Of a stretch of 64,000 bases of DNA, positions 19,278 through 33,357 are shown piece by piece (positions within the stretch are counted from its first letter, which is position 1; the number at the start of each line of letters is the position of its first letter). The translations under genes and the position numbers were made by a program. A model generated the notes under the pieces. It saw nothing but the letters and a program-made list of their open reading frames with translations. It did not search any database and was not told the origin of the DNA. This stretch comes from an uncultured virus (IMG/VR IMGVR_UViG_3300018080_000161) (Duplodnaviria; Heunggongvirae; Uroviricota; Caudoviricetes): the IMG/VR virus record IMGVR_UViG_3300018080_000161; one strand, 5' to 3'.

Positions 19278-19305
19278 TTGACAATCAAACCTCAGTTGTT
19301 ATGCT
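19278..19305 (+). promoter_or_regulatory. promoter whose -10 overlaps tRNA-Glu 5' end
   Basis: TTGACA-16-TATGCT with extended TG. Confidence 0.6.
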
Positions 19306-19378
19306 CCCATCTAACTAAGGGTCAGGTGGGCGGCCTTTCAAGCCGCAGGTAGGGGTTCGAATCCCCTTGGGAGCACCA
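19303..19378 (+). tRNA. tRNA-Glu(TTC)
   Basis: Cloverleaf with CCA; loop CT-TTC-AA. Confidence 0.85.
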
Positions 19379-19677
19379 TGGCGAAAGACGATAGCCAGAG
19401 CACGGACAGCGGAAGCAATGGTGGGAACGGCATGACGCCCACGCAGAAGAAAGCCATGTTCGAAGCCTACGAGCAGTCCACCGAGGACTACAACGAGGCG
19501 ACAGACGCAGCCGAGAAGGCCAAGAAGGCCCGCTCGGACAAGGTGAAGGAGATCGCCACGAGACTGGGCAACGGGCCCTTCAGGTGGCGCGGCCAGACCC
19601 TGACCATCACGCGTCGTGGTGGTGAAGACGGGCTCTACTTCTTCACGCAGAAGAGGGAAGCCGACGAAATCGGCTGA
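19378..19677 (+). CDS. hypothetical coiled-coil protein
   Basis: ATG shares the A of the tRNA CCA; typical codon usage. Confidence 0.7.
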   Translation: MAKDDSQSTDSGSNGGNGMTPTQKKAMFEAYEQSTEDYNEATDAAEKAKKARSDKVKEIATRLGNGPFRWRGQTLTITRRGGEDGLYFFTQKREADEIG

Positions 19678-19716
19678 GGTTGTCAGAAGACAGGACACCC
19701 GAGCGTCCTAGACGCT

Positions 19717-19788
19717 GGGTCGGTAGCCAACGTGGAACGGCAGCGGATTGAAAATCCGCCTATGTGGGTTCGACTCCCGCCCGGCCCG
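19717..19788 (+). tRNA. tRNA-Phe(GAA)
   Basis: Cloverleaf; loop TT-GAA-AA. Confidence 0.9.
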
Positions 19789-19790
19789 CC

Positions 19791-19858
19791 GCGAGGCGAA
19801 GATCAGGGGTACATCGTACAACAATCACGAACCTTCCCTTGGTCGCTCTCATCCTCGC
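19791..19858 (+). ncRNA. Y RNA-like 1 (minimal, Ro-binding-type stem only)
   Basis: GCGAGG-CGAA-GATCAGGG...CCCTTGGTC-GCTCTCAT-CCTCGC; same stem as four other copies; upstream of TROVE gene. Confidence 0.75.
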
Positions 19859-19863
19859 ACTAT

Positions 19864-19936
19864 GGTGGCTGTAGCCTAAAGGTAGGGCGCCTGGTTGTGG
19901 TCCAGGTACGTGCGGGTTCGAGTCCCGTCAGTCACC
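19864..19936 (+). tRNA. tRNA-His(GTG)
   Basis: Cloverleaf with G-1/C73; loop TT-GTG-GT. Confidence 0.9.
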
Positions 19937-19938
19937 CT

Positions 19939-20097
19939 GAGATGAGGCGTTAGATAGGGGTACTTCGGTAAAAGCAACGAGTGAAAATCGTAGATTGTTG
20001 GTTCGACTCCAACCGGGCCCACCGCTGGCGCAAGCCGGCTTCTTCACGGGCCTGTAGCTAAAAAGCATGGTCCCTTGTCGCCCATCATCCTCATCTC
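19939..20097 (+). ncRNA. Y RNA-like 2 (YrlA-type permuted tRNA domain)
   Basis: GAGATGAGG/CCTCATCTC termini; T arm GTTGG-TTCGACT-CCAAC, then CGGGCCC/GGGCCTG stem, then TAGCT D arm. Confidence 0.8.
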
Positions 20098-20101
20098 TTT
20101 C

Positions 20102-20176
20102 GGGGGAGAAGCTCAACGGTCGAGCACGGAGCTGTTAACTCCGCCACTGCGGGTTCGAATCCCGTCTCCCCCTCCA
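20102..20176 (+). tRNA. tRNA-Asn(GTT)
   Basis: Cloverleaf with CCA; loop CT-GTT-AA. Confidence 0.9.
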
Positions 20177-20306
20177 CGCGAGGCGTAGATCAGAGCTACT
20201 TCGTTGGTTCGAATCCAATCTCACGCGCCAAAACTGCATGAGTAGCCGAGTGGTACAGGCACCCCACGCAATGGGGAAAACGGCTTTGGTCGCCATCATC
20301 CTCGCG
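20177..20306 (+). ncRNA. Y RNA-like 3 (YrlA-type)
   Basis: CGCGAGG/CCTCGCG termini; T arm TTGG-TTCGAAT-CCAA, capped acceptor-like stem, D arm TAGCCGAGTGGTACAGGC; 35 nt before TROVE gene. Confidence 0.85.
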
Positions 20307-20341
20307 TTCGTTTCTTCAGCCCCACCAACGGGAGGTGGATC

Positions 20342-21943
20342 ATGACGAGAGTACAGAACCTTTTCGGACGCACGCCGACGAGTTCGGCAGACACCAAGAA
20401 CTTCCACGGGATGCCCGCATGGACGCTGCCTCTTCCGGAGCGCTTCATTCAGGTGACCCTGACCAACACGCTCGGCAACACCTTCTACCTGAAGCAGAGC
20501 GACATGCTCGAGCAGACGAAGGAAGTGCACGCCGAGATGCTCAAGGCCGACCCCGCGTTCTACGCGAAGGGGCTCGTGTTCGCCCGCAACAAGGGCTACA
20601 TGCGCTCGCAGCCGGCCTACGGGCTCGCATGCCTCGCGAGGGATTCCAGGCCCGAGGCACGCCTTGCGTTCGCGCAGGCGTTCGGTGAGGTCATCCGCAC
20701 GCCCAACGACCTGAACGACTTCATGACCATCCACGCGTCTCTGGCGAATGGATCGATCGGAGGCCGTAGGGTCAAGCGGGTCATCGGCGCCTGGATGACG
20801 GAGAAGCTGAGCGAGTACTGGACGATCAAGTACGGCACCGAGCGCAAGGCTGGCTCCTACACGCTTCGCGACACCATGCAGCTCGTGCACCCGAAGACGG
20901 GCGAGCCGCGCCCGCTGTTCGACTACATCATGGGTGAGTCGGAGAAGCGGAAGGTGGACATCTCGACGCTGCCTCAGATTCAGCAGTTCGAGGCCCTCAA
21001 GAAGGCCAAGACCGACGAGGAGAAGATCGCTGCCATCAAGATCGGGCGGCTCCCTCACGAGGTCGTCACCCCGTTCATCGGGAGTTCGAAGAAGCTGTGG
21101 GAGGCCCTCGTGCCGAACCTTCCGATCTTCGCACTGCTCAAGAACCTGGCGACGCTCGAGCGGCAAGGGGTCATCGAGTCGTGCAAGGAAGAGGTTCTCC
21201 GGAAGCTCACCTCGCCGCAGATCATCCAGCGGTCCAAGATCCTGCCTTTTCGGTTCATCGAAGCGGAGAAGCACGTCACCGCGACGTGGGTCAAGGACGC
21301 CCTCCGTGACGCTGTCGAGCTCGCGTTCGACAACGTGCCCGAGATCCCAGGCAAGACCGCCGTGCTGCTCGACGTCTCGCCGAGCATGCAGCCGGGCATG
21401 GGTTGGTTCCACCACACGCCCTCCCCGGCAGACGCGGCCCGAGCGCTCATCGGCCCGGCTTCCGTGCTTTCGGTCGCGGTCGCCAAGAAGGCCAAGTGCG
21501 ACGTCGTCGCCTTCGACGGCTCGGCCAAGCGAATCAGCATCTCCCAGCGCGACTCCCTGCTCACGCAGGCGCAGAAGTTCTGGGGAGTCCACGTCCACCC
21601 GCGCGGCGGTACCAACCAGTCCGCTGCTCTCGACATCCTCCGTGTGGACAACGAGAAGGTGGACAACGTCGTCCTGCTGACTGACGGTGAGCAGAACATG
21701 GGTCGGCCCTTCGCGCAGGCCCTTCAGGAGTACCGCGTAGCCTTGTCCCGCAAGGCGAAGGTCTTCGTCATCGACGTCTCGCCTCATGGGCACGCGCTCA
21801 TGGCGCCTGACGACAAGAACGTCTACTGCGTGTCCGGTTGGTCGGATCAGATCCTCAACTTCATCGCGCTCGCGTCGCAGGGATGGACGTCCCTGGCCGA
21901 CCACGTGAAGTCGCTGGACCTCGAGACGGCGCCGAAGCCGTGA
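20342..21943 (+). CDS. rsr: Ro60/Rsr-like TROVE + vWA domain RNA-binding protein
   Basis: TNTLGNTFY, FAR..GYMRSQP, KY, LRD.MQLVHPK, ALLKNLATL, SKILPFRF, DVSPSM MIDAS, GGT, LTDGEQN, GWSD. Confidence 0.9.
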   Translation: MTRVQNLFGRTPTSSADTKNFHGMPAWTLPLPERFIQVTLTNTLGNTFYLKQSDMLEQTKEVHAEMLKADPAFYAKGLVFARNKGYMRSQPAYGLACLARDSRPEARLAFAQAFGEVIRTPNDLNDFMTIHASLANGSIGGRRVKRVIGAWMTEKLSEYWTIKYGTERKAGSYTLRDTMQLVHPKTGEPRPLFDYIMGESEKRKVDISTLPQIQQFEALKKAKTDEEKIAAIKIGRLPHEVVTPFIGSSKKLWEALVPNLPIFALLKNLATLERQGVIESCKEEVLRKLTSPQIIQRSKILPFRFIEAEKHVTATWVKDALRDAVELAFDNVPEIPGKTAVLLDVSPSMQPGMGWFHHTPSPADAARALIGPASVLSVAVAKKAKCDVVAFDGSAKRISISQRDSLLTQAQKFWGVHVHPRGGTNQSAALDILRVDNEKVDNVVLLTDGEQNMGRPFAQALQEYRVALSRKAKVFVIDVSPHGHALMAPDDKNVYCVSGWSDQILNFIALASQGWTSLADHVKSLDLETAPKP

Positions 21944-21953
21944 CATCCTTTCC

Positions 21954-21979
21954 GAAACGCGACCACGTGGTCGCGTTTC
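21954..21979. repeat. perfect 26-bp palindrome
   Basis: GAAACGCGACCAC|GTGGTCGCGTTTC; 16-bp core recurs at 38425-38440. Confidence 0.85.
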
Positions 21980-21984
21980 ACCTC

Positions 21985-22056
21985 CGGGGCGTTGGATAAT
22001 GGTGGTCCACTCGGTTTGGGTCCGAGACAACGCAGGTTCGATTCCTGTCGCCCCGA
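21985..22056 (+). tRNA. tRNA-Pro(TGG)
   Basis: Cloverleaf; loop TT-TGG-GT. Confidence 0.9.
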
Positions 22057-22074
22057 CTATGTTATCCTGTCGTC

Positions 22075-22329
22075 ATGAACGGCAGGATGCGTCGATTGCT
22101 AGAGCAGAACACCGTCGCCGTTGTGGCGGGGGAGTTCGGAGGCGAGATCATTCCGGGCGGGGAGGCCGAGGGGCGCAAGCCCTCCGACTTCGACCCCGAG
22201 CAGCTCGCACTGGGGACAGCGACCGAGATGGAGCACACGCACGACCCTCGCATGGCGATGGAGATTGCGATGGACCACCTCGTCGAAGACCCCGAGTACT
22301 ACACGAAGCTCTTGGCGATCGGTCTGTAG
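22075..22329 (+). CDS. DUF5661-like protein
   Basis: G...EMEHT.D...A.EIAMDHL.E.P.YYTKL; TG-T-TATCCT 6 nt before ATG. Confidence 0.75.
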   Translation: MNGRMRRLLEQNTVAVVAGEFGGEIIPGGEAEGRKPSDFDPEQLALGTATEMEHTHDPRMAMEIAMDHLVEDPEYYTKLLAIGL

Positions 22330-22331
22330 GC

Positions 22332-22407
22332 GTCCCTGTAGCACAATGGATCGTGCAGCGGCTTCCTAAGCCGACGGGTGCAGGTTCGAGTCCTGCCAGG
22401 GACACCA
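22332..22407 (+). tRNA. tRNA-Arg(CCT)
   Basis: Cloverleaf with CCA; loop TT-CCT-AA. Confidence 0.9.
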
Positions 22408-22408
22408 T

Positions 22409-22484
22409 CCCGCATGAAGCTGCTGGGTAGGCTGTCCGACTGTCTCTCGGATGTTGACGGGTTCGATTCCCGTATGCGGGGCCA
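22409..22484 (+). tRNA. tRNA-Asp(GTC)
   Basis: CCCGCAT/ATGCGGG acceptor, CCA; loop CT-GTC-TC. Confidence 0.85.
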
Positions 22485-22669
22485 TGTTCGACGAAGACCT
22501 CTTCCACTGCCCGAACTGCGATCGGCAAATCCGGATGGTGAAGCCCCCGGTGAGGAGCGAGGTCGTCGCCGAGAACGAGGCTTGGGTCTGCCGGTGGTGC
22601 GACACGTACGTGTGCATCTACTGCTACCTCGAGCACACGAAGGAGAAGCATGGGAGAGGCTCTGGGTAA
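22484..22669 (+). CDS. small zinc-finger protein
   Basis: CPNC, CRWC, CIYC..EH; ATG shares the A of tRNA CCA. Confidence 0.6.
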   Translation: MFDEDLFHCPNCDRQIRMVKPPVRSEVVAENEAWVCRWCDTYVCIYCYLEHTKEKHGRGSG

Positions 22670-22723
22670 GCGGGTTGGTCTCCAAAACCGACCGTCTGGG
22701 GAGTTCGATTCTCCCATCTCCTG
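22652..22723 (+). tRNA. tRNA-Trp(CCA)
   Basis: Loop CT-CCA-AA, T arm; reduced D arm. Confidence 0.75.
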
Positions 22724-22736
22724 CTAGGAGGCGACG

Positions 22737-22964
22737 ATGCGCATGGCGTCAGAAGATCAGATCGACGACTGGATTCTTCAAGAGCTTGAGCGGTGGCCCG
22801 GCACCTTGAGCTACCACGAGCTTCAGTGGACCGTGTTTCGAACGTGGCCTCACCGAAATGCGCGCTCGAGAGAGCACACCAGGATCATTCGACGACGGCT
22901 GAAGTGGTTGAGCCTTCACGGGTTCATCTACGCCGTGGGCGGATGCTGGTACATCGTCGAATGA
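22737..22964 (+). CDS. small hypothetical (winged-helix-like) protein
   Basis: AGGAGG SD. Confidence 0.55.
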   Translation: MRMASEDQIDDWILQELERWPGTLSYHELQWTVFRTWPHRNARSREHTRIIRRRLKWLSLHGFIYAVGGCWYIVE

Positions 22965-22965
22965 C

Positions 22966-23040
22966 GGTACCGGACGGATCGGTTACCCTGTTCCGCCTGA
23001 TAAGCGGAGCGTCCGAGTTCGACTCTCGGCGGTACCACCA
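22966..23040 (+). tRNA. tRNA-Ile(GAT)
   Basis: GGTACCG/CGGTACC acceptor, CCA; loop CT-GAT-AA; weak D arm. Confidence 0.8.
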
Positions 23041-23041
23041 T

Positions 23042-23116
23042 GGGGTCGTAGTGATAATGGGAGCACACTGCCCTCGCACGGCAGTAGTAGGGGTTCGACT
23101 CCCCTCGATTCCACCA
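23042..23116 (+). tRNA. tRNA-Ala(CGC)
   Basis: G3:U70, CCA; loop CT-CGC-AC. Confidence 0.9.
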
Positions 23117-23129
23117 CGGAGGCATAGAC

Positions 23130-23429
23130 ATGCGCATTGACATCTACGTGATCCTCGAGCCCGGCGCCGACCGGCCGTACCTCTCGACGACGCCGCCAGT
23201 CGGCTACGCCAAGACCAAGCCAGGCGCCAAGATCTTCGTCATCGAGGCCGAGCTCCCAGACTTCGTCGAAGTCGACGGCAAGGTCCAAGCCTTGACCAAG
23301 GAGATCAGCCTCGAGCAGCTCGAGGGAGGTGCTGTCAGCATCGGACAGCGCACCGTCGCCGACATCGATCCAGAGATGTCCCAGCACAACGTGGACGCCG
23401 TGAGACACGCGATGAACAAGGGGTCGTAG
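23130..23429 (+). CDS. hypothetical protein
   Basis: GGAGG SD; stop is U8-A9-G10 of next tRNA. Confidence 0.7.
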   Translation: MRIDIYVILEPGADRPYLSTTPPVGYAKTKPGAKIFVIEAELPDFVEVDGKVQALTKEISLEQLEGGAVSIGQRTVADIDPEMSQHNVDAVRHAMNKGS

Positions 23430-23493
23430 CTCAATTCGGGAGAGCGCTTGCCTGGCAGGCAAGGGGCTGCGGGTTCGAGTCCCGTCGATTCCA
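23420..23493 (+). tRNA. tRNA-Ala(GGC)
   Basis: G3:U70; loop CT-GGC-AG. Confidence 0.9.
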
Positions 23494-23591
23494 CTCTGAC
23501 GAGGCCGTCATGCACGGGCGTGGTGGTAGAACACCAGGTGTCCTTTCATTTCCTTGGCCGGACACGGAAGAAGGCCGTCTCGTCGGGTACT

Positions 23592-23662
23592 GGGGGTGTA
23601 GCTCAACGGGAGAGCACTGCGCTTGCACCGCAGGGATGAGGGTTCGACTCCCTTCACTTCCA
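23592..23662 (+). tRNA. tRNA-Ala(TGC)
   Basis: G3:U70; loop CT-TGC-AC. Confidence 0.9.
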
Positions 23663-23679
23663 CTGATAGGATGGTGCGC

Positions 23680-24507
23680 ATGGACGTCGTCGAAGCTGTC
23701 AAGAACGGGCTAGCCAACTTCACCTGGTCCGAGATCATCAACGAGAAGGACGGGATCAGGATGACCTTCAGCGTCTTCTCGGACGCTCTGAAGATCGTTC
23801 ACGTCGAACCGGACACGGGCGAGGCCGTCCAGGTCCGCGTCATGGTCACCTCCGTCGAGGCGCAGCAGATCGCCGACCTGCTCGGCTGCATGTGCACGAC
23901 GCCCCTGGTCGAAGACCTCATCGCGAGGCAGGCCGAGGTGACCATCAAGCCCATCACGCAGATCGACGGCAACATCTGCGCGGTCTCGACCGACACCCGG
24001 CACTCGGAGCTCGTCGATGCGGAGCTCGCGAAGGTCGAAAACTACGAGGACGGGATGCTCATCAACACGGTGGGCAAGAGCTGGGTCCTGGTCAACAAGC
24101 TGGCCCATCCCGAGCAGCTCAAGTTCGGTATCCACCAAGCCTACAACTACGGCTGGATCCACCCGAGCGCGGTGTACTGGTCGGTCACCATGCTCAAGTG
24201 CTGGCAGACGGTCGGCGGAGCTCACAACGACGAGCACGAGGACCCGAGCCAGACCTGCCGCCTGATGGGCAAGTGGGTCAAGGTCGAGCACCTCGAGACC
24301 GGCGAGGAGTACTACGTCGAGGTCGAGACGGCCGGTCCCGACCCGGAGCTTGGAAAACTCATCTCGCACGAGGGCACGCTCCAAGTCTTCCGCCAGCCGT
24401 CCGTGCCCGAGCCCGAGGAGAAGGTCATCGTGCTGCCCGAGGTCATCGTGTACGGCACGCCCCCGACCACTCCGACACTCCGCGAACTGAAACCCCTCAA
24501 AGTCTAG
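23680..24507 (+). CDS. hypothetical protein (possible metal-dependent enzyme)
   Basis: GKSW, NYGW, HNDEHEDPSQ motifs; TG-A-TAGGAT 7 nt before ATG. Confidence 0.7.
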   Translation: MDVVEAVKNGLANFTWSEIINEKDGIRMTFSVFSDALKIVHVEPDTGEAVQVRVMVTSVEAQQIADLLGCMCTTPLVEDLIARQAEVTIKPITQIDGNICAVSTDTRHSELVDAELAKVENYEDGMLINTVGKSWVLVNKLAHPEQLKFGIHQAYNYGWIHPSAVYWSVTMLKCWQTVGGAHNDEHEDPSQTCRLMGKWVKVEHLETGEEYYVEVETAGPDPELGKLISHEGTLQVFRQPSVPEPEEKVIVLPEVIVYGTPPTTPTLRELKPLKV

Positions 24508-24580
24508 CCACTGTAGCTCCAAGGTGGAGCACGCCCCCGGTACGGGTGAGGTCCGAGTTCGATTCTCGGCAGTGGCTCCA
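24507..24580 (+). tRNA. tRNA-Thr(GGT)
   Basis: Cloverleaf with CCA; loop CC-GGT-AC (C33). Confidence 0.85.
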
Positions 24581-24582
24581 TT

Positions 24583-24655
24583 GCAGGCGATGTCCAAGGA
24601 GGGCAAGTAGGCTTCCAACCTACCGGGCCGGGTTCGATTCCCGGCGTCTGCTCCA
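24583..24655 (+). tRNA. tRNA-Gly(TCC)
   Basis: Cloverleaf with CCA; loop CT-TCC-AA. Confidence 0.9.
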
Positions 24656-24656
24656 T

Positions 24657-24728
24657 GCGGGCAATGTTCCAAGGTGGGACGCCGCGTTGCCAACGCGGTC
24701 TCGGTGGGTTCGATTCCCACTGCCCGCT
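24657..24728 (+). tRNA. tRNA-Gly(GCC)
   Basis: Cloverleaf; loop TT-GCC-AA. Confidence 0.9.
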
Positions 24729-25176: not shown

Positions 25177-25205
25177 TTGACAATCACAACAGCACTGGTT
25201 ATGCT
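25177..25205 (+). promoter_or_regulatory. promoter whose -10 overlaps tRNA-Glu 5' end
   Basis: TTGACA-17-TATGCT. Confidence 0.55.
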
Positions 25206-25276
25206 CCCATCTGACTAACCGGATAGGTGGTGGCCCTCTCAAGGCCAAGGTGCGGGTTCGAGTCCCGCTGGGAGCA
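25203..25276 (+). tRNA. tRNA-Glu(CTC)
   Basis: Cloverleaf; loop CT-CTC-AA. Confidence 0.85.
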
Positions 25277-25279
25277 CCG

Positions 25280-25663
25280 ATGGAAGAAGCGGCAGACCTT
25301 CTCGCAATAGGATCTCAACTCGTGGAGCTCGGCGGCGAGCTCAAGAAGAAGAAAGCCGAGAGGGAGGAGCTCGACAAGGAAATCGCCGCGCTCGAGGAGA
25401 AGCTGCGCCCCCTCGTGGTCCAACACACGCAGCTCCTGAGCGACCTGGTCGGCACGCCTCCCCCTGCTGCCACCTCCGTGGCGGGCTCTGACCCGGTCGT
25501 GAAGGGCTCGGCGCCCATCAACGAGCAACTACGCAAGCGACTGACCGACTACCTCGCCAAGGCCGACCCAGGCATCTCCGCGTTCGAAATCGCGGAGGCC
25601 CTCAAGGTCGACCCCACACTGGTGCGGGAAGTCATGCGGGACCTAGCCAAAGGCAAGGTCTGA
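25280..25663 (+). CDS. coiled-coil plus C-terminal HTH-like protein
   Basis: Heptads then SAFEIAEALKVDPTLVREVMRDL. Confidence 0.7.
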   Translation: MEEAADLLAIGSQLVELGGELKKKKAEREELDKEIAALEEKLRPLVVQHTQLLSDLVGTPPPAATSVAGSDPVVKGSAPINEQLRKRLTDYLAKADPGISAFEIAEALKVDPTLVREVMRDLAKGKV

Positions 25664-25812: not shown

Positions 25813-26004
25813 ATGAGAACGTCAGAACCGCACGAGCACGGCCGACCCCTGGGCGACGTCCGAGGAGTCGTCTGGGCGATGCTCCGAGGCATCTCGGATC
25901 CGAGAACATGGCGGTCGAAGTGTGCTCGCTGTGGGCGCACCGGTCAGTGGCATTGGTCGAAACGATCCGTCCTGCAATGCAGGCGGTTCAAGTCCTTCTG
26001 GTGA
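25813..26004 (+). CDS. small hypothetical protein
   Basis: ATG immediately after CCA; CARC motif; fills spacer. Confidence 0.4.
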   Translation: MRTSEPHEHGRPLGDVRGVVWAMLRGISDPRTWRSKCARCGRTGQWHWSKRSVLQCRRFKSFW

Positions 26005-27843: not shown

Positions 27844-27844
27844 C

Positions 27845-27873
27845 TTGACAATCCCTCCGGTAGCTGTTACGTT
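27845..27873 (+). promoter_or_regulatory. sigma70-type promoter, leaderless
   Basis: TTGACA-17-TACGTT with extended TG; ATG 7 nt downstream. Confidence 0.7.
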
Positions 27874-27880
27874 GCCGAGC

Positions 27881-28123
27881 ATGATCATGGTGAGCCACAA
27901 CGGGCACCTTCTGCTCGAGGAGCACGACTACGAACTGCTGTCGGAAGAGGATGTGCGGTTCGACTTCGAACTGCGCGGCCCGCGCAACGGCAAGTCGGGG
28001 GACATGGTCGCCATCATCGACACGGACGAGAACAAGAAGCTCGCGTTCGAAGTCCTGCGAAAGATCGAGAAGGGCGGTCGCATTCCAGACGACGCGCGGA
28101 AGGTTTTGATTCGGCGCCTCTAG
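27881..28123 (+). CDS. hypothetical protein
   Basis: Starts at predicted TSS; stop is U8-A9-G10 of tRNA-Val. Confidence 0.65.
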   Translation: MIMVSHNGHLLLEEHDYELLSEEDVRFDFELRGPRNGKSGDMVAIIDTDENKKLAFEVLRKIEKGGRIPDDARKVLIRRL

Positions 28124-28188
28124 CCTTCTGGGAGGGCACGTCCATGACGAGGACGCAGAGGTGGGTTCGATTCCCACGAGGCGCACCA
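28114..28188 (+). tRNA. tRNA-Val(GAC)
   Basis: Cloverleaf with CCA; loop AT-GAC-GA. Confidence 0.85.
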
Positions 28189-28535
28189 TGAGAAAAGCGT
28201 GGAACTGTACGATCTTCCCGGTTTACCAGACGGCTGTCGTGCTCAAGGGCGCAGCGCAGACCAGGTTCTACACGGATCGGGCGGTGGCCGAGAACGTCGC
28301 GATGATTCTCACGGGGATGGGAGGCGAGGTTCACATCACGGACCGCAAGGTGCTTTGCCTCGAGCTCGCCGACGACGAGGGGCTCGACCTCGTTCACTAC
28401 CTGCTCGATCAGACCCAGAGCAGCAAGCCCATCAAGGTCGAGTCCTGGCAGGACGCTAACAAGTGGGCCACCAAGCGGTTGGAAGCGCTCGCGAAGCTCA
28501 CGGACGAAGACAAGGCCGTGCTGGGGTTGAAATGA
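28188..28535 (+). CDS. hypothetical protein
   Basis: ATG shares A of CCA; C-terminal ALAKLTDEDKAVLGL common in phage proteins. Confidence 0.65.
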   Translation: MRKAWNCTIFPVYQTAVVLKGAAQTRFYTDRAVAENVAMILTGMGGEVHITDRKVLCLELADDEGLDLVHYLLDQTQSSKPIKVESWQDANKWATKRLEALAKLTDEDKAVLGLK

Positions 28536-29044
28536 ATCGTCTCCGACTAGTCCGGTTCCCTCGGTGGCACACCATCCAAGACAAGTCTCGGACGGTGATG
28601 CACATGAAGGAGGCTCCCGTCTCCAGCGTCTGTCCCGGCGACATCGTCTTCGCTGTCCCGGCCGGCCACGAGACCGAGACCGAGTTCATCCCCCTGCGGG
28701 TGACGGCGGTCGAGCAAGGCAACCTTCTCGTGCTGCTCACGGACGGGGAAGTCCAGAAGATGGGCTGCTCCCGAGAGGAGTTCGAGAAGAGCTGGCGGGT
28801 TGTCCACAAGGAAAGCATCGACGCCAACCCGAAGGTGCTGCGCATCGAGTTCGAGTACTGCGGCAACCCTTCACGCGAGCTCCGAGAGCAGATCGCCAAG
28901 GAGACGCTTGCCGTGCTGGAGTGCATCGAGAACACGATGCCCAGCGTCGAGCAGGAGATCACGAAGTCGCTCGCCGAGAAGATGAGCGAGGAGATAGACG
29001 CCGAGGTCATCGCGGAGCTCGACGACTTGAGAATTGCGAGATGA
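28532..29044 (+). CDS. hypothetical protein
   Basis: ATGA overlap; C-terminal EQEITKSLAEKMSEEIDAEVI helix. Confidence 0.6.
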   Translation: MNRLRLVRFPRWHTIQDKSRTVMHMKEAPVSSVCPGDIVFAVPAGHETETEFIPLRVTAVEQGNLLVLLTDGEVQKMGCSREEFEKSWRVVHKESIDANPKVLRIEFEYCGNPSRELREQIAKETLAVLECIENTMPSVEQEITKSLAEKMSEEIDAEVIAELDDLRIAR

Positions 29045-29118
29045 GCCAACGTAGCCCAACTGGCAGAGGTAGCCGTTTCAAACGCGGTCAAGTGAGGGTT
29101 CGAATCCCTCCGTTGGCA
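29045..29118 (+). tRNA. tRNA-Leu(CAA), short variable arm
   Basis: Cloverleaf; loop TT-CAA-AC. Confidence 0.85.
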
Positions 29119-29122
29119 CTGA

Positions 29123-29206
29123 GCTCAGGTGGTGGAATGGTAGACACGCCAGTCTCAGGAACTGGTGGCCCTTGTGGCTGTGCGGGTTCGAGTCCCGCTC
29201 TGAGCA
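29123..29206 (+). tRNA. tRNA-Leu(CAG)
   Basis: Long variable arm; loop CT-CAG-GA. Confidence 0.9.
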
Positions 29207-29211
29207 CCCAC

Positions 29212-29299
29212 GCGCGGGTGGTGGAATGGTAGACACGCTTGGTTGAGGGCCAAGTGGGGCATAGTCCCTGTGAGGGTTCGACTCCCTCTCCGCGCACCA
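29212..29299 (+). tRNA. tRNA-Leu(GAG)
   Basis: Long variable arm, CCA; loop TT-GAG-GG. Confidence 0.9.
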
Positions 29300-29529
29300 T
29301 GAACAAGCTGATCGAAGTGAGGGAGAAGAGTGACGAGGTCCACGTCTACCTGGACGGGCACATCGCCGCGAAGCTCCAGAACCTGCTCTGTGCGGCACGC
29401 CCTCGAGGAAGCCAGACTGTCCTCGTGCGGACGCCTGAAGGGGTCCAGGTGAAGCTCACGGTGCACGTGACGTCGGAAGCCAAGACGATTCCTCCCGGCG
29501 AGCGTCACAAGCCCATCAGTTTGAAGTAG
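29299..29529 (+). CDS. hypothetical protein
   Basis: ATG shares A of CCA; ends flush with next tRNA. Confidence 0.6.
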   Translation: MNKLIEVREKSDEVHVYLDGHIAAKLQNLLCAARPRGSQTVLVRTPEGVQVKLTVHVTSEAKTIPPGERHKPISLK

Positions 29530-29603
29530 GCTCGGGTAGCCCAACTGGCAGCGGCAGCGGGTTTAGAACCCGTCCAGTGCGAGTTCGAATCTCGCCCCGA
29601 GCA
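29530..29603 (+). tRNA. tRNA-Leu(TAG), short variable arm
   Basis: Cloverleaf; loop TT-TAG-AA. Confidence 0.85.
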
Positions 29604-29606
29604 CCC

Positions 29607-30086
29607 ATGACCACGAAGCGCGTGAAGAGGAAGAACGGATGGACCGTCGCAGACATGGAACTGCGTCGGCGCTACCTGTGCATCGTGGTGGAGACGGAGG
29701 ACGAAGCAGATTTCCTGATGAGGGACTTGCTGCACCCCTACCCGTCAGATCATCGTTGGAGAGAGCGTCTGAAGGTACGGCCCGTCGTAGACGGCCGGGT
29801 CGTGTTCGAGGAGAAACATCATGAGAAAGAAGAGACGGAGGTAGGTCATGGAAGCGAGAACACTGGTGCTGACGAGCTGGTACATGCCGATCCAGATCAT
29901 CCCGTGGACGGAGGCGATAACGGGCATCTACACGGGGAAGTTCGAGCAGCTCGCGGGGTATCCGGGCCAGTCGGTCCGAAGCCCAAGCGTGGAAATGGAT
30001 CTTCCCGCCGTGATTCGCGTGCGCAAACCGTTCGGCGCGGCGAAGAAGGGCATCAAGTTCTCGCGGACGAACGTCGCGGCTCGTGA
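29607..30086 (+). CDS. hypothetical protein (3' part overlaps HNH gene)
   Basis: ATG just after tRNA; first ~80 codons look coding. Confidence 0.4.
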   Translation: MTTKRVKRKNGWTVADMELRRRYLCIVVETEDEADFLMRDLLHPYPSDHRWRERLKVRPVVDGRVVFEEKHHEKEETEVGHGSENTGADELVHADPDHPVDGGDNGHLHGEVRAARGVSGPVGPKPKRGNGSSRRDSRAQTVRRGEEGHQVLADERRGS

Positions 30087-30357
30087 CGGACACCGCTGCC
30101 AGTACTGCTTGAGGAAGCTGCCGCTGTCGAAGCTCACGTACGACCACGTCATCCCGAAGTGTCAGGGAGGTCTGACGACGTGGACGAACATCGTGATGGC
30201 TTGCAAGGCGTGCAACTCCAAGAAGGACGGCCGCACGCCCGACCAAGCCGGCATGACCCTGCACTGCGTACCGAGGCGCCCGAACAGTCTTCCTCTCGAG
30301 CCGCTGCGTCTGCCCGAGGCCGCGCCCGACATCTGGAAGCAATTCGTAGGGGCCTGA
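29848..30357 (+). CDS. HNH endonuclease (McrA-like)
   Basis: FSRTNV..RD.HRCQYC, TYDHVIP..GG.TTWTNIV.AC..CN..K. Confidence 0.9.
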   Translation: MEARTLVLTSWYMPIQIIPWTEAITGIYTGKFEQLAGYPGQSVRSPSVEMDLPAVIRVRKPFGAAKKGIKFSRTNVAARDGHRCQYCLRKLPLSKLTYDHVIPKCQGGLTTWTNIVMACKACNSKKDGRTPDQAGMTLHCVPRRPNSLPLEPLRLPEAAPDIWKQFVGA

Positions 30358-31235
30358 TGCTCTCGATCGGGAGCCTCTTCTCTGGGATCGGTGGGCTCGA
30401 GCACGGTCTTGAGCTCGCCGGTCTGGGTCCTGTACTCTGGCAAGTCGAACAGAACGAGTTCTGTCGTCGGGTGCTCGAGCAGCACTGGCCGCAGGTTGAC
30501 AGGAGCGTAGTCGATGTCCGAGAAGCCGAAGGGCAACCCCGACCTGACCTGCTGTGTGGGGGATTCCCTTGCCAAGACATTTCCTCCGCAGGTACACGAA
30601 GTGGCCTTGCAGGTTCTCGTAGCGGGCTTTGGTACGAGTTCTCTCGACTCGTTGAGGAACTACATCCGAGGTGGGTCGTCGTCGAAAACGTTGCGTCAGG
30701 CGGCAACAAATGGGTCGATGCCGTCCGACGAGACCTGGAACGGCTCGAGTATGCGAGCCTACCGGTCCCGATTGAAGCAAGGGATGTGGGGGCGCCACAT
30801 GTTCGCGCCCGCATCTTCCTTGTCGCGGCCAACCCCCACCACATGCCCGAGCAGCTCTTCAGGCAGTGGCGCTCCACCCGACCCGAGTCAGCCTACCAGT
30901 CCGCAGCCGACTTCCATCTGGCCGACCCCCACCGTTTCCGACGCGAAATCCTCAAGACGGCAAGGCTACATGTTGAAGGGCAAACCGGGGACCACGCTGA
31001 CGGACGCGCTCCATTCCCATTTCCTCCCGAGTGCGGAGATCAGGCAGCCTGGGGAGCGTACCTCAGTGACGGTGGCCCTGAACCCGGTGTTCGTCGAAGC
31101 CCTCATGGGTTTCATGCCCGGATGGACCGGGCTCGGCTTCGAGCCCTAGGCAACTCCGTCGTTCCCCAGTGCGCCGAGGTGGTCGGGCACATCATCCGCA
31201 ACCTGGACCCGTGCCTTCCTCCATGCAGAGGGTAG
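30357..31235 (+). CDS. DNA cytosine-C5 methyltransferase (alpha-like chain)
   Basis: SLFSGIGG, GGFPCQD, ENV, PHVRARIF, RLRALGNSVVP. Confidence 0.9.
   Translation: MLSIGSLFSGIGGLEHGLELAGLGPVLWQVEQNEFCRRVLEQHWPQVDRSVVDVREAEGQPRPDLLCGGFPCQDISSAGTRSGLAGSRSGLWYEFSRLVEELHPRWVVVENVASGGNKWVDAVRRDLERLEYASLPVPIEARDVGAPHVRARIFLVAANPHHMPEQLFRQWRSTRPESAYQSAADFHLADPHRFRREILKTARLHVEGQTGDHADGRAPFPFPPECGDQAAWGAYLSDGGPEPGVRRSPHGFHARMDRARLRALGNSVVPQCAEVVGHIIRNLDPCLPPCRG
30514..31149 (+). CDS. nested alternate-frame ORF, putative methyltransferase beta chain carrying motif IX
   Basis: AGGAG SD inside the MTase gene; WPTPT and LNPVFVEALMGFMPGWT. Confidence 0.6.
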   Translation: MSEKPKGNPDLTCCVGDSLAKTFPPQVHEVALQVLVAGFGTSSLDSLRNYIRGGSSSKTLRQAATNGSMPSDETWNGSSMRAYRSRLKQGMWGRHMFAPASSLSRPTPTTCPSSSSGSGAPPDPSQPTSPQPTSIWPTPTVSDAKSSRRQGYMLKGKPGTTLTDALHSHFLPSAEIRQPGERTSVTVALNPVFVEALMGFMPGWTGLGFEP

Positions 31236-31278
31236 AGATCGCCTCGTCATTTCTGCTACCGTAAGGGCGAGGTAGACG

Positions 31279-32532
31279 ATGACTAGACAAGGACGAAAGC
31301 GTGGAGCCCCCGCTCCTGATCCGTTGTATGACCACCCGACTGCCCCGGCGGCTCCGGAGCAGGTCGCTCGAGAGGAGAAGGCGAAAACTCCCCCGACTCG
31401 AGCGACGACCGGCATCGACCTACCCGATTTCGAGGAGGTTGCTGTCGAGGACCCGGATGCAGAAGACACCGAGGCAGTCTTCCGTGAGGACGCCTTCGAC
31501 GCGGCTCTGCGCATGGCGTTCATCGGCGCCGGCCAAGGCGGCGGCAGGATCACCGAGGCGTTCAAGCGACTGGGGTATGCTCGAGTCTGCGCCGTGAACA
31601 CGACGAGCCAAGACCTGGTCGACCTCGACGTCCCGCACCAGCTCGTCATCGGCGACAACCGGGGCGGCGCCGGCAAGGACCCCGAGGAGGGACGTCTCGC
31701 TGCCGAGGAGAGCGCCGAGGACATCATGGACCTGCTCATGCGCTCGTGGGGCGACAAGGTCGAGCAGACTTGGATTTGCGTCGGCGCGGGCGGTGGCTCG
31801 GGGACCGGAAGCTGGCCCAAGCTGGTCGACCTGGTGCACGAGTACTGCAAGAGCACCGACATCGAGAAGCCCATCGGCAAGCGCGTCGGCGTCATCATGA
31901 CGATGCCCAAGCGAAGCGAGGGAGCTCGAGTCCAGCGCAACGCTCTGGCGGCCATCAACCAGGCCGTGGAGTTTTCCAAAGAGGGGCGCATCTCGAGCCT
32001 GGTCCTGGTCGACAACGCCAAGATCCACGAGCTCTTCCCCCGGCTCCCGGTCAAGCGCTTCTGGGCTGCGGCCAACCAGAACTTCGCGGCCGTCCTGCAC
32101 ACCTTCAACCTGCTCGCAGCTCAGAACAGCGCCTACAACACGTTCGACCGAGCTGACTTCAGGAGCGTCCTGCGCAACGGTCTGATGATCTTCGGCATGA
32201 CTCGAGTGCACCGCTGGCAGCGCACCGAGGACATCTCCCAGGCCGTTCGCAAGAACCTCGCGGGCACGCTGCTCGCCGAAGGCTTCGACCTCGCTCGAGC
32301 GGACATGGCCGGCGCCATCGTCGTCGCGCACGACTCCGTGCTCGAGGAGATTCCGATGGAGAACATCGACTACGCCTTCAACTCACTCGGGCGCACGCTC
32401 GGCAACGAGGGCATCACGCTCCACAACGGCATCTACGAAGGCAACGCGGAAGGCATCCGCGTGTTCACCATCATCAGTGGGCTCGAACCCCCGATCGAAC
32501 GGCTCGAGGAGCTCGACGTGCTCTCGGCATGA
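31279..32532 (+). CDS. tubulin/FtsZ-family GTPase (PhuZ/TubZ-like)
   Basis: IGAGQGGGRI, VNT, GAGKDP..G, GAGGGSGTG, VDN, FDRADF. Confidence 0.9.
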   Translation: MTRQGRKRGAPAPDPLYDHPTAPAAPEQVAREEKAKTPPTRATTGIDLPDFEEVAVEDPDAEDTEAVFREDAFDAALRMAFIGAGQGGGRITEAFKRLGYARVCAVNTTSQDLVDLDVPHQLVIGDNRGGAGKDPEEGRLAAEESAEDIMDLLMRSWGDKVEQTWICVGAGGGSGTGSWPKLVDLVHEYCKSTDIEKPIGKRVGVIMTMPKRSEGARVQRNALAAINQAVEFSKEGRISSLVLVDNAKIHELFPRLPVKRFWAAANQNFAAVLHTFNLLAAQNSAYNTFDRADFRSVLRNGLMIFGMTRVHRWQRTEDISQAVRKNLAGTLLAEGFDLARADMAGAIVVAHDSVLEEIPMENIDYAFNSLGRTLGNEGITLHNGIYEGNAEGIRVFTIISGLEPPIERLEELDVLSA

Positions 32533-32538
32533 GGAACC

Positions 32539-32874
32539 ATGGACTACGCAAGCAAGATCAACGAGTGCCGCAGGATGCTTGGTGAGGGTGTGACCCCGGA
32601 AGCGAAGAAGTTCGCGGCCGACCTGACCAGCTTTCTCAAGTCGAAGGGCTTCAAGGTCAAGGGCGACATGGGCGGGGCCGTGACGGTCAAGCTCGCCGCT
32701 GCCGACAAGGACAAGCTCGAGAAGGCGCTCAAGAGCAAGTGGAGTGACTCGGGCACCCTCAGTCCGGTGGTGCGCATGGTCGGCCACTTCGCGAAGCCCA
32801 CGCAGCTCGCGGGAGGTCAGATCCAGATCACCTTCAAGCCGGGCGAGCTCAACGACCTTGCTGCGAAGCTGTGA
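32539..32874 (+). CDS. hypothetical protein
   Basis: GAGG SD; shared N-terminal helix. Confidence 0.7.
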   Translation: MDYASKINECRRMLGEGVTPEAKKFAADLTSFLKSKGFKVKGDMGGAVTVKLAAADKDKLEKALKSKWSDSGTLSPVVRMVGHFAKPTQLAGGQIQITFKPGELNDLAAKL

Positions 32875-33116
32875 CCTGCGAGCACGTCTGGGCTGAGATC
32901 ACGGACTTGCCGATCGGAGAACCCAAGGGGCGCTACTGGAAGTGCTCCCGGTGCGACGTCATCGGTTACACGCGGCGCCCCAAGAGCGCCGAGAAGGCCC
33001 GTCCGGTGATTTACCGGTGCTGCCAGCTAGGCTGCACCGAAAGCGCCACCTTGCGCCGTCCTGGGCGCGGGACGAGGGGTAGACTGCTCTGGGTCTGCCC
33101 CGAGCATGGAAGATGA
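32871..33116 (+). CDS. small Cys-rich zinc-binding protein
   Basis: CEH, CSRC, CCQLGC, CPEH. Confidence 0.55.
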   Translation: MTCEHVWAEITDLPIGEPKGRYWKCSRCDVIGYTRRPKSAEKARPVIYRCCQLGCTESATLRRPGRGTRGRLLWVCPEHGR

Positions 33117-33193
33117 ACCTGGCATGGAGCCGGGGCCCGGTTGGAAGCCGGTGCGTGCGACAGCATGGCGTTCGATTCGTCCATCTTCCGCCA
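33108..33193 (+). tRNA. tRNA-Ser(GGA)
   Basis: GGAAGAT/ATCTTCC, G73, CCA; long variable arm. Confidence 0.85.
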
Positions 33194-33357
33194 TGAAACG
33201 AAAGAAGAAGGTCAAGTTGTCTGTCGCGTTGAGCGAAGAAGCCAAGGAGCTTCTCGAGCGAGCCGCGAAGGCCAAGGGTCTGTCTCGGAGTGCCATGATG
33301 GAGCAGTCGGTGCGGTATGCGGTACCACTGCTACGTGAGTCTGGAGGGTACCGCTAA
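33193..33357 (+). CDS. ribbon-helix-helix (CopG-like) DNA-binding protein
   Basis: KLSVALSEEAKELLERAAKAKGLSRSAMME; ATG shares A of CCA. Confidence 0.7.
   Translation: MKRKKKVKLSVALSEEAKELLERAAKAKGLSRSAMMEQSVRYAVPLLRESGGYR

Follow-up and report, generated by a model that had tools for sequence, protein, structure and literature searches.

Within a 64,000-nucleotide stretch of DNA from an uncultured phage of 62% GC (IMG/VR record IMGVR_UViG_3300018080_000161; hereafter the window), an array of 41 tRNA genes contains five small ORFs (A to E) whose ATG takes as its A the terminal A of an encoded CCA end. The reading that we favor, and that could well hold although we put it forward tentatively, is that these and a few neighboring ORFs are real, lineage-specific small genes packed in the tRNA array, which start on A76 or one base past C75 and use two initiation routes coupling tRNA folding and processing to translation. 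Judged by the arrangement of the genes, tRNA production and translation of the neighboring ORFs are probably linked. The tRNA genes, ORFs A to H, and promoter-like sequences given below with their coordinates lie on the + strand.

ORF starts and stops at tRNA gene boundaries

ARAGORN with default settings detected 40 tRNA genes in the window, and a tRNA-Ser(GGA)-like element added at a relaxed threshold brought the total to 41. C74 was present in all 41, and CCA was encoded in 16. Reading of the sequence confirmed all five junctions of the original prediction, in which the ATG at 19378, 22484, 28188, 29299, or 33193 shares the terminal A of an encoded CCA. The CCA was followed by TG in 8 of the 16 CCA-encoding tRNAs (TG frequency 0.053; binomial p = 5e-7), comprising the five ORF starts and three tRNA-to-tRNA joints. 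When the five CCA-encoding tRNAs abutting another tRNA were excluded, CCATG with an ORF occurred at 5 of 11 (p = 1.5e-4). The tRNA-to-tRNA joints at 23038..23042 (tRNA-Ile to tRNA-Ala), 24653-24657, and 33426-33430 consist of the CCA, a single-T spacer, and G1 of the next tRNA; CCATG arises there because of U(-1) and G(+1) of the next tRNA, and T at -1 was found in 18 of the 41 tRNAs (p = 6e-5). An ATG one base past nucleotide 74 was observed at 9 of the 41 tRNAs versus 0.44 expected.

The tabulated tRNA-to-ORF spacers were -1 nt (ORFs A to E), 1 nt (ORF F), 12, 13, 13, 16, or 17 nt, or at least 36 nt, with none between 2 and 11 nt. An SD-like stretch was found in four of the five spacers of 12-17 nt, the 17-nt spacer before 22075 having none. 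At the other end, the stop codon lay wholly within the next tRNA in 8 of 17 tabulated ORFs, a ninth ORF had its last base on tRNA nucleotide 1, and 13 of the 17 ended within the next tRNA or no more than 2 nt from it. RNase P would therefore remove or clip the stops lying within or on the next tRNA, leaving non-stop or stop-terminal RNAs; such overlaps fit competition between two fates rather than tidy punctuation.

These boundaries might reflect compaction only, in which deletion bias pressed accessory ORFs onto tRNAs, SD-independent internal initiation, probably weak, would take place on unprocessed polycistronic RNA before tRNA folding, and the shared A would have no regulatory meaning. All boundaries in the array are minimal, as the ORF ends and the short SD spacers illustrate, the junction ORFs are fast-turnover accessory genes missing from the relative described below, and ORFs and promoters overlap tRNA genes in the annotation of coliphage T5 too. 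However, an AUG lying 3 nt from an acceptor helix of 7 bp is poorly suited to internal initiation, and compaction by itself does not require offsets to cluster sharply at 1-2 and to be missing from 3-11. Moreover, T5 has equally compact ORF ends and keeps its SD spacers nonetheless, while the accessible 5' coding regions and the SD-like enrichment given below point to selection on initiation. We regard this explanation as possible but unlikely.

Coding capacity of the junction ORFs

Four of the five tRNAs at the CCATG-ORF junctions scored 30.2-51.6 bits with Rfam against a gathering score of 29. A strong codon-position signal was observed for the ORFs at 19378, 22484, 28188, and 29299 (GC3 0.81-0.87, positive codon score). 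For the junction ORFs, the named frame had a GC3 of 0.80-0.87 and the other frames scored negative; the coding signal set in at 19372 (ORF A), 22481 (ORF B), and 29296 (ORF D), that is, at the joint.

ORF A (19378..19677; 99 aa, GC3 0.82, codon score +0.57) starts on A76 of tRNA-Glu(UUC) (19303..19378; ARAGORN, Rfam 37.6 bits; encoded CCA at 19376-19378), the acceptor 3' strand of which contains GGAG 4 nt ahead of the ATG. A public gene caller also chose this start. ORF A also has an in-frame ATG at codon 19. ORF B (22484..22669; 61 aa, GC3 0.87) follows tRNA-Asp(GUC) (22409..22484; ARAGORN, Rfam 30.2 bits; encoded CCA) and stops 20 nt within tRNA-Trp. Its product is Cys-rich and zinc-ribbon-like, with the first CxxC at residues 9-12; all its Pfam zinc-finger matches were below threshold, and the 61-aa version is present in a public collection. 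ORF C (28188..28535; 115 aa, GC3 0.84), publicly called in the same 115-aa form, starts on the encoded CCA of tRNA-Val(GAC) (28114..28188; ARAGORN, Rfam 49.6 bits), which has GAGG 6 nt ahead of the ATG; the preceding ORF (27881-28123) terminates with TAG on nucleotides 8-10 of this tRNA. ORF D (29299..29529; 76 aa, GC3 0.81) starts on A76 of tRNA-Leu(GAG) (29212..29299; ARAGORN, Rfam 51.6 bits; encoded CCA), and its stop adjoins tRNA-Leu(UAG) with a 0-nt gap. Public calls include both 76-aa and 91-aa forms of ORF D, for which no real homologue was found among 1.84 billion representatives; the homologue search with the predicted ORFs A and C returned only themselves.

ORF E (33193..33357; 54 aa) encodes a ribbon-helix-helix protein (Pfam RHH_1, 1.1e-7, residues 9-43, above the cut-off). 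It is short, with a weak codon score, and stops 15 nt within tRNA-Ser(CGA); a public caller preferred an 83-aa form from 33106. The low-scoring tRNA-Ser(GGA)-like element on whose encoded CCA it starts (33108..33193) was found by ARAGORN with -ps80 only, being missed by default, and gave no Rfam match at E <= 0.1. The upstream ORF (32871-33116) ends 9 nt within this element.

The original prediction had added three starts near tRNA ends, of which 25280 is well supported, 29607 plausible, and 25813 devoid of coding signal. ORF F (25280..25663; 127 aa, GC3 0.80) encodes a coiled coil and a weak wHTH and starts as CC-G-ATG behind tRNA-Glu(CUC) (25203..25278; ARAGORN, Rfam 46.9 bits), which ends in CC followed by G and has GGAG 5 nt ahead of the ATG. 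The stop of ORF F adjoins tRNA-Arg(UCU) with a 0-nt gap; public calls are of 127 or 113 aa, a GTG at codon 15 being used by two callers. The possible ORF H (29607..29846) starts as CC-C-ATG after tRNA-Leu(UAG) (29530-29605), and its GC contents by codon position (0.65/0.35/0.72) are coding-like. Its frame is open to 30086, overlapping an HNH gene (29848-30357), and it is neither a called gene nor present in the public collection. ORF G (25813..26004; 63 aa) starts as CCA-ATG, 7 nt after GGGAGGG, and is doubtful, with a codon score of -0.35 and no call by public gene finders in the public collection.

The junction ORFs, or some of them, could be non-genic or start elsewhere, with the CCATG excess as a by-product. 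Three of them (A, C, and D) are ORFans, ORF G has no coding signal, and other starts are conceivable for E (the longer call), A (the ATG at codon 19), and F (the GTG at codon 15). Against this, the named frames alone carry the coding signal, which sets in at the joint, the RHH domain of E needs the residues from 9 on, the first CxxC of B lies equally close to its start, and the junction statistics (8 of 16 and 5 of 11) speak against a by-product. We therefore consider this explanation improbable.

Initiation signals and promoters

By sequence, the original prediction was correct that a single base belongs to both CCA and AUG and that no free SD is possible upstream: everything ahead of the AUG is tRNA body, and initiation would therefore proceed without a free SD. 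When nine junction ORFs were compared with 63 SD-led control genes, the first 24 nt past the AUG were richer in A (0.36 versus 0.23, p = 7e-4) and took less energy to unfold (3.6 versus 7.3 kcal/mol, p = 0.006), and the start was ATG in 9 of 9 versus 42 of 63. Small basic N-termini alone could give rise to an A-rich 5' coding region. Within their last 18 nt, 3 of 7 junction tRNAs had SD-like 4-mers, as did 2 of the 34 remaining tRNAs (Fisher p = 0.028); with the 25813 joint classed as a junction, the counts were 4 of 8 versus 1 of 33 (p = 0.003). This enrichment in the acceptor 3' strand implies that some junction ORFs are translated from RNA that still includes the tRNA. Upon folding with a full or a 5'-truncated leader, the SD region of ORF F opened (probability unpaired from 0.14 to 0.49), whereas that of ORF A was unchanged (0.49 to 0.50).

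Promoter-like sequences overlap the 5' ends of both tRNA-Glu genes. TTGACA-16-TATGCT (19278..19305) takes nucleotides 1-3 of tRNA-Glu(UUC) into its -10 box, with a transcription start predicted near nucleotides 10-11, and TTGACA-17-TATGCT (25177..25205) overlaps tRNA-Glu(CUC); the -35 and -10 hexamers are identical and the intervening spacers differ. In addition, a sequence motif of leaderless type, TTGACA-17-TACGTT followed after 7 nt by the ATG of 27881 (27845..27883), recurs in its geometry at 15602, 33547, and 58067. At these four promoter-like sites the ATG lies 6-7 nt past the -10 box, ahead of well-coding ORFs; by this motif geometry, the phage appears to have leaderless genes of its own.

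The tRNA punctuation originally proposed would, in its pure form, have all junction ORFs freed by tRNA 3' processing as near-leaderless mRNAs, the SD-like motifs and overlapping promoters being incidental. It agrees with the leaderless habit of the phage, the accessible, A-rich starts, the exclusive use of ATG, the cleavage within CCA published for actinobacteria, and the lack of such joints in T5, whose host is poor at leaderless translation. However, the cut would take away correctly spaced SD-like motifs enriched in acceptor 3' strands, the two promoters over tRNA 5' ends and the stops within downstream tRNAs do not fit, and a leader of 1-2 nt reduces leaderless efficiency. The mechanism is thus partly supported, and we judge its pure form to be quite unlikely.

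Candidate initiation routes

In the two-route reading, the SD-less joints (B, D, E, and perhaps H) would be cut by a host endonuclease between C74 and C75, yielding a 5'-monophosphate RNA starting with C-AUG, which could be translated via the leaderless pathway already used at several phage promoters; CCA repair would then complete the tRNA. At A, F, and C, GGAG or GAGG in the acceptor 3' strand, 4-6 nt ahead of the AUG, may act as an SD when the acceptor stem is unformed. For A and F, the promoter-like sequence overlaps tRNA nucleotides 1-3, and a transcript made from it would therefore start without the 5' acceptor strand. In the case of C, the preceding ORF has its stop on tRNA nucleotides 8-10, so that the terminating ribosome would keep the stem open. 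Transcription starts, the cleavage site, and translation itself are what we infer here. Either route would make translation of the adjacent ORF and tRNA folding or processing depend on each other.

Relatives and comparable systems

A search for a cultured relative of the phage found none; its presumed actinobacterial host phylum is therefore assigned by resemblance only. The nearest and sole syntenic relative, G002, lacks ORFs A to E and has an ORF F orthologue (36% identical) that follows an ordinary SD and lies 39 nt downstream of another tRNA; in this genome, a TTGACAATCA box lies 29 nt ahead of tRNA-Glu(CUC). Conservation was thus seen for no individual joint, but other tRNAs of G002 form three coding CCATG-ORF joints, and its CCATG excess is weak (4 of 25, p = 0.07).

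In translational coupling, an SD sequestered in a helix is unmasked by an upstream ribosome or by a missing partner strand; unlike in this textbook case, the helix masking the SD in the phage would be the acceptor stem of a functional tRNA. For animal mitochondria, Ojala, Montoya and Attardi reportedly described tRNA punctuation with leaderless mRNAs in 1981. There, as here, tRNAs flank coding regions without a 5' UTR, and tRNA excision presumably produces a 5' end fit for translation; in the phage, ORFs D and F likewise have a tRNA on either side, at gaps of -1 to 1 nt. Unlike in the mitochondrial case, the tRNA genes of the phage encode a CCA overlapped by the start codon, the same array contains internal promoters and SD-led and promoter-driven leaderless genes, and several stops lie within the next tRNA with no polyadenylation available for stop completion.

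According to two actinobacterial 5'-end maps (Lin et al. 2013, PMC3848588; Romero et al. 2014, PMC4681348), encoded CCA is always cleaved between the Cs (C74/C75), and leaderless mRNAs are common in both mapped organisms. Such an endonucleolytic cut would fall 1 nt before the shared A of the phage, whose universal C74 matches a process leaving C74 on the tRNA. It predicts an mRNA 5' end of CAUG rather than the CCAUG originally proposed. In contrast to the phage case, these papers cover host tRNAs, and they do not tie the downstream fragment to translation. The leaderless mRNAs of Actinobacteria and Caulobacter (PMC4633059, PMC8459731) resemble the junction ORFs in lacking an SD, in having their AUG at the 5' end or close to it, and in needing little energy to unfold the start, and their -10-to-ATG geometry is matched at the four phage promoters. 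Leaderless mRNAs known so far are primary transcripts with a 5'-triphosphate, whereas the phage 5' end would be processed with 1-2 extra bases; in Caulobacter, about 45% of the leaderless activity is retained with a 1-nt leader (PMC8459731).

In T5 (NC_005859), tRNA genes are similarly interspersed with and overlapped by small ORFs, promoters, and HNH genes, and ORFs end right at a tRNA 5' end or run into it. Unlike in the phage, A-rich trailers come after the CCA ends of T5, with downstream ATGs read about 13-20 nt off behind GGAG-type SDs, and CCATG occurs at 0 of 22 CCA-encoding tRNAs (Fisher p = 2.6e-4 versus the window).

A literature search found no paper discussing ORF starts directly after tRNA genes in Streptomyces or Mycobacterium phages. 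In the genome stretches fetched, C74 was present in 23 of 23 tRNAs of Streptomyces phage Sham, 36 of 37 of Streptomyces phage Evy, and 29 of 29 of Mycobacterium phage Myrna, all phages of leaderless-proficient hosts. Their tRNA genes at these sites have no CCA and hence, unlike in our phage, no shared base, and an ATG at offset 0 was rarer in the Streptomyces phages (2 of 23 and 1 of 37). As in our phage, a start codon (ATG or TTG) directly follows the tRNA C74 at Sham genes 91 and 137, Evy gene 166, and Myrna gene 210, those of the Streptomyces phages being annotated CDS starts (two in Sham and one in Evy).

Overlap of tRNA 3′ ends with ORF starts

The original prediction held that five ORFs use the last base of an encoded CCA as the A of their ATG, and the sequence at all five joints (ORF A, 19378; ORF B, 22484; ORF C, 28188; ORF D, 29299; ORF E, 33193) was as described. 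The tRNA array occupies 18444-33513 on the plus strand, where the default ARAGORN run detected 40 genes, all on this single strand; a 41st, the tRNA-Ser(GGA)-like element at 33108-33193, was found only at a relaxed threshold. Four of the five joint tRNAs passed the Rfam gathering score (30.2-51.6 bits), and the fifth (33108-33193) gave no Rfam match at E ≤ 0.1.

CCA was encoded by 16 of the 41 tRNAs and was followed by TG in 8 of the 16 (TG frequency 0.053, p = 5e-7). Three of these eight CCATG sequences were tRNA-to-tRNA joints (23040, 24655, and 33428), in which T is a one-base spacer and the next tRNA begins with the G. Over all tRNAs, an excess of T was also seen at position -1 (18/41, p = 6e-5), in line with the bias of bacterial RNase P towards U(-1). 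When the five CCA-tRNAs abutting another tRNA were dropped, CCATG with an ORF was still present at 5 of 11 (p = 1.5e-4). With annotation ignored, an ATG was located one base past nucleotide 74 in 9 of the 41 tRNAs against 0.44 expected, namely the eight CCATG sequences and a C-T-ATG after the tRNA-Pro at 22057. The CCA/ATG joints are real and far exceed chance.

For the ORFs listed, the distances from tRNA end to ORF start were -1 nt (ORFs A-E), 1 nt (ORF F, 25280), 12, 13, 13, 16, and 17 nt, or at least 36 nt, and none fell between 2 and 11 nt. A GGAGG-type Shine-Dalgarno (SD) site was present in four of the five spacers of 12-17 nt and was absent from the 17-nt spacer before 22075. For tRNA punctuation, a gap of 0-2 nt with no UTR is expected; measured from the ARAGORN end, ORFs A-E lie at -1 nt and ORF F at +1 nt.

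Coding potential of the junction ORFs

The GC content was 62% across the whole window, and 17 long ORFs had a third-position GC content (GC3) of 0.77-0.89, a very strong signal by which reading frames were easily judged. ORFs A (19378-19677), B (22484-22669), C (28188-28535), and D (29299-29529), all on the plus strand, showed GC3 values of 0.81-0.87, with codon scores above zero in the named frame and below zero in both others, and onsets of the coding signal were placed at the joint (19372, 22481, and 29296). No homologues of ORFs A, C, and D other than themselves were found in large protein collections, and the first CxxC of ORF B lies at residues 9-12. ORF E (33193-33357, plus strand) is short and had a weak codon score; its product matched Pfam RHH_1 above the gathering score (31.9 bits against a cut-off of 20.5, E = 1.1e-7, residues 9-43). 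Since this match begins at residue 9, the start of ORF E cannot be further downstream.

Public gene callers independently used the junction ATG for ORFs A, B, C, and D and, in one call of three, for ORF F; for ORF E a longer form was picked, and the calls for the same DNA conflicted over D, E, and F. Callers and annotation rules that bar tRNA/CDS overlap mis-set these starts. Three further starts close to tRNA ends had also been proposed. ORF F (CC-G-ATG) was well supported, and ORF H (29607, CC-C-ATG) had coding-like composition with a frame continuing into an HNH gene, whereas ORF G (25813, CCA-ATG) had no coding signal and was left uncalled by the public callers. The frame from 29607, which follows tRNA-Leu(UAG), is open for 159 codons to 30086, overlapping, in a different frame, the gene for an HNH endonuclease (29848-30357).

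Comparison with other phages

The window belongs to an uncultured phage, and one public viral contig was the same phage (100% identity to the window). Megablast of 19000-30000 gave no match in cultured phages, and tblastn with two large proteins revealed no cultured relatives. The Ro-like protein encoded at 20342-21943 showed approximately 24% identity to proteins of Streptomyces and Mycobacterium phages, in which most of its matches lay, and a locus search with this protein alone returned only the same phage. These Ro-like matches, the 62% GC, the TTGACA/TAnnnT promoters, and the leaderless genes described below are supporting signs that hint at an actinobacterial host.

A profile of the 275-aa protein encoded at 23680-24507 retrieved 13 viral loci (own contig excluded) and 5 metagenome loci, among which the tRNA/ORF mosaic was found in G002 only, a syntenic relative whose identity to the window is 37% for this marker and 68-85% for the tubulin-like protein. 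A search with the latter gave 11 viral loci besides the own contig and G002: seven had no tRNA, three had two each, and one had 17 plus-strand tRNAs with no ORFs. In G002, 25 of the 46 plus-strand tRNAs encode CCA, and 4 of these are followed by TG (p = 0.07). Three of the four CCATG joints open coding ORFs, after tRNA-Tyr, tRNA-Pro(GGG), and a tRNA labelled by ARAGORN as tRNA-Met(CAT), which has the acceptor 5′ strand GCGCCTC in common with tRNA-Val(GAC) of the window. Another candidate joint in G002, an SD within tRNA-Arg(UCU) followed by ATG, was rejected because its coding signal begins 60 nt further downstream, with a promoter-like site in between.

ORFs A-E were absent from G002 and from all 38 foreign loci, tblastn giving only one weak zinc-ribbon match, for ORF B. 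The orthologue of ORF F in G002 lies 39 nt past a different tRNA, behind an SD. Accordingly, the layout recurs in the lineage, as the joints of G002 indicate, but no conserved single joint was found. As accessory genes, the junction ORFs turn over fast.

Within the stretches retrieved from three actinophages, C74 was kept in 23/23 tRNA genes of Streptomyces phage Sham, 36/37 of Streptomyces phage Evy, and 29/29 of Myrna; no tRNA gene of Sham or Evy encodes CCA. An ATG directly follows C74 in two tRNAs of Sham and one of Evy, and annotated CDSs of Sham start directly after C74 with ATG (gene 137) and TTG (gene 91). A comparable mosaic, in which ORFs and promoters overlap, is present in coliphage T5. 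None of its 22 CCA ends carries CCATG, and the downstream ATGs inspected lie approximately 13-20 nt away, behind SDs. A search for tRNA punctuation or CCA/start-codon sharing in the phage literature, with subscription journals and older T5 work outside its scope, found no paper on either.

In several phages, HNH endonuclease genes immediately adjoin the 3′ end of a tRNA: two in G002 (one CCAG-ATG and one CCG-ATG) and gene 210 of Myrna, whose annotated start is a TTG immediately past C74 of tRNA-Asn.

Promoters and signals for initiation

Promoter-like sites of the form TTGACA-16/17-TAnnnT were enriched (6 found versus 2.1 ± 1.5 in shuffles). All genes share one strand, as a single polycistronic precursor cut at its tRNAs by RNase P and a 3′ endonuclease would require, but at least six promoter-like sites were located within 17.5-35.5 kb. 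In four cases the ATG lay 6-7 nt past the -10 box (15636, 27881, 33581, and 58101) and the ORF had a GC3 of 0.82-0.88, indicating that the phage uses classical leaderless genes. These four geometries offer indirect evidence, from sequence, for an expression system proficient in leaderless translation. Each of the two tRNA-Glu genes is overlapped at its 5′ end by a further such site, the two sites having the same hexamers and different spacers, and the -10 box TATGCT takes in tRNA nucleotides 1-3; by normal geometry, transcription would start near tRNA nucleotides 10-11. A further promoter-like sequence, TTGACG-16-TAGAGT, was observed in 27582-27772, followed by approximately 160 nt without ORF signal up to tRNA-Ile(UAU). 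The noncoding stretch 27616-27772 folded no better than shuffles (z = -1.6) and had no Rfam match.

A Caulobacter study gives start accessibility, AUG, and a minimal leader as the determinants of leaderless initiation, each extra 5′ base approximately halving the activity (0.45 × i^-0.91) (PMC8459731). The 24 nt that follow the AUG were compared between nine junction ORFs (six from the window and three from G002) and 63 SD-led controls. At the junctions, A was more frequent (0.36 versus 0.23, p = 7e-4), GC was lower, and unfolding cost less energy (3.6 versus 7.3 kcal/mol, p = 0.006); all nine ORFs began with ATG, as against 42 of the 63 controls. Thus, the AUG and the accessible start expected of a bacterial leaderless mRNA are both present at the junction ORFs.

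No SD was found upstream of ORFs B, D, E, and H, whereas GGAG or GAGG occurs upstream of A (4 nt from the ATG), F (5 nt), and C (6 nt). Of the 7 junction tRNAs, 3 contained GGAG, GAGG, or AGGA within their final 18 nt, but only 2 of the 34 others did (Fisher p = 0.028); one of these two precedes the doubtful ORF G, and counting G as a junction lowers p to 0.003. These motifs would be lost from the downstream RNA if CCA were cut internally; their enrichment therefore argues for translation from an RNA that keeps the 3′ part of the tRNA with the acceptor stem open. For ORFs A and F, the promoters overlapping tRNA-Glu would yield RNA devoid of the 5′ acceptor strand; folding of full and 5′-truncated tRNA-Glu leaders supported such unmasking for F and did not for A. 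For ORF C, the upstream ORF ends at nucleotides 8-10 of the tRNA, where a terminating ribosome would keep the stem open.

ORF ends at downstream tRNAs

The array is compact at both ORF ends. The stop codon abuts the next tRNA in five ORFs and overlaps it in nine. Among the five, D, F, and 28532-29044 leave 0 nt before the tRNA, and the two others leave 1-2 nt. Of the nine overlaps, that at 23680-24507 involves only the final G, which is also tRNA nucleotide 1. In the other eight, the stop falls wholly inside the tRNA, by 20 nt for ORF B and 15 nt for ORF E. The downstream arrangement expected of punctuation, an ORF that keeps its stop and ends where the next tRNA begins, is seen at D, F, and 28532-29044 and is not seen at B, E, and six others, whose stops lie within the tRNA. 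Four ORFs, starting at 23130, 24784, 26888, and 27881, end with the TAG of nucleotides 8-10 (U8-A9-G10) of the next tRNA (23427-23429, 24994-24996, 27500-27502, and 28121-28123, plus strand); for these, the tRNA supplies the stop codon. As RNase P cleavage would turn ORFs with such internal stops into non-stop RNAs, translation must precede or compete with excision of the downstream tRNA. The ORF at 26666-26884, with a GC3 of 0.89 in its first 44 codons, reads across the whole tRNA-Val(UAC) gene (26800-26874) before its stop.

Proposed mechanism

In two differential 5′-end maps of Actinobacteria, from P. acnes (PMC3848588) and S. coelicolor (PMC4681348), pre-tRNAs encoding CCA are described as cleaved within it, "always between the Cs", and leaderless mRNAs as common. 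At a CCAUG joint, cleavage of this kind would produce 5′-P-C-AUG, with a one-base leader, and a tRNA ending at C74 that would need CCA repair. In the window, C74 is present in all 41 tRNA genes, with T at position 75 in 14 of them; the universal C74 here and in the three actinophages would fit the logic of intra-CCA processing.

The original prediction of near-leaderless punctuation is plausible and has indirect support: the promoter geometry and the A-rich, accessible starts speak for it, and the SD-like motifs at A, F, and C, together with the stops inside tRNAs, speak against it as the sole explanation. The evidence favours a mixed picture, with leaderless-type initiation after intra-CCA cleavage at the SD-less joints and SD unmasking at three others. 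We infer the cleavage and translation steps of this mechanism.

A wider reading, which we consider rather unlikely at present, is that this phage has mitochondrion-like punctuation, its tRNA genes doubling as expression signals for accessory genes. In some places the CCA cut would make the near-leaderless 5′ end of the mRNA; elsewhere the acceptor stem would act as an on/off mask for an SD in the tRNA 3′ strand. Promoters would be sited so that transcription begins inside a tRNA, and each transcript copy would go to either tRNA or protein. 

If tRNA 3′ processing or opening of the acceptor stem does license translation of the adjacent gene, phage tRNA arrays would be expression scaffolds beyond codon-supply cassettes, in which new small genes could be expressed while lacking both a promoter and a ribosome-binding site, explaining the rapid turnover of accessory ORFs between tRNAs. 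Such licensing would also provide a natural bacterial case of leaderless mRNAs generated by processing and would give the intra-CCA cleavage of Actinobacteria, so far unexplained, a biological role.

Other features of the array

A five-copy repeat family was found at 19791-20320 and 26218-26543, every copy beginning directly after a tRNA 3′ end. The conserved ends are 5′ GAGGCGTAGATCAG... and 3′ ...CATCATCCTCGC, and a T-arm-like GGTTCGAnTCC is present in three of the five copies. Copies flank the Ro-like (TROVE) gene (20342-21943), and the repeats look like candidate Y-RNA/YrlA-type Ro partners; Rfam gave no Y-RNA family match for them. G002 is without both the repeats and the Ro gene. In their Ro regions, Streptomyces phage Quantum and Mycobacterium phage Myrna have two tRNAs each.

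The tubulin/FtsZ-family gene (31279-32532) adjoins the array. Its tblastn match in G002 (41214-43469) is split approximately 1 kb apart into residues 3-290 and 287-416, and the HNH match is split too, which suggests inserted elements, possibly an intein or intron. Finally, the product of the ORF at 26888-27502, inside the array, is 2H-phosphoesterase/LigT-like (Pfam 2_5_RNA_ligase2, 1.7e-13) and also matches, more weakly and barely over the cut-off, the anti-CBASS Acb1 family; it shows 54% identity to its counterpart in G002.
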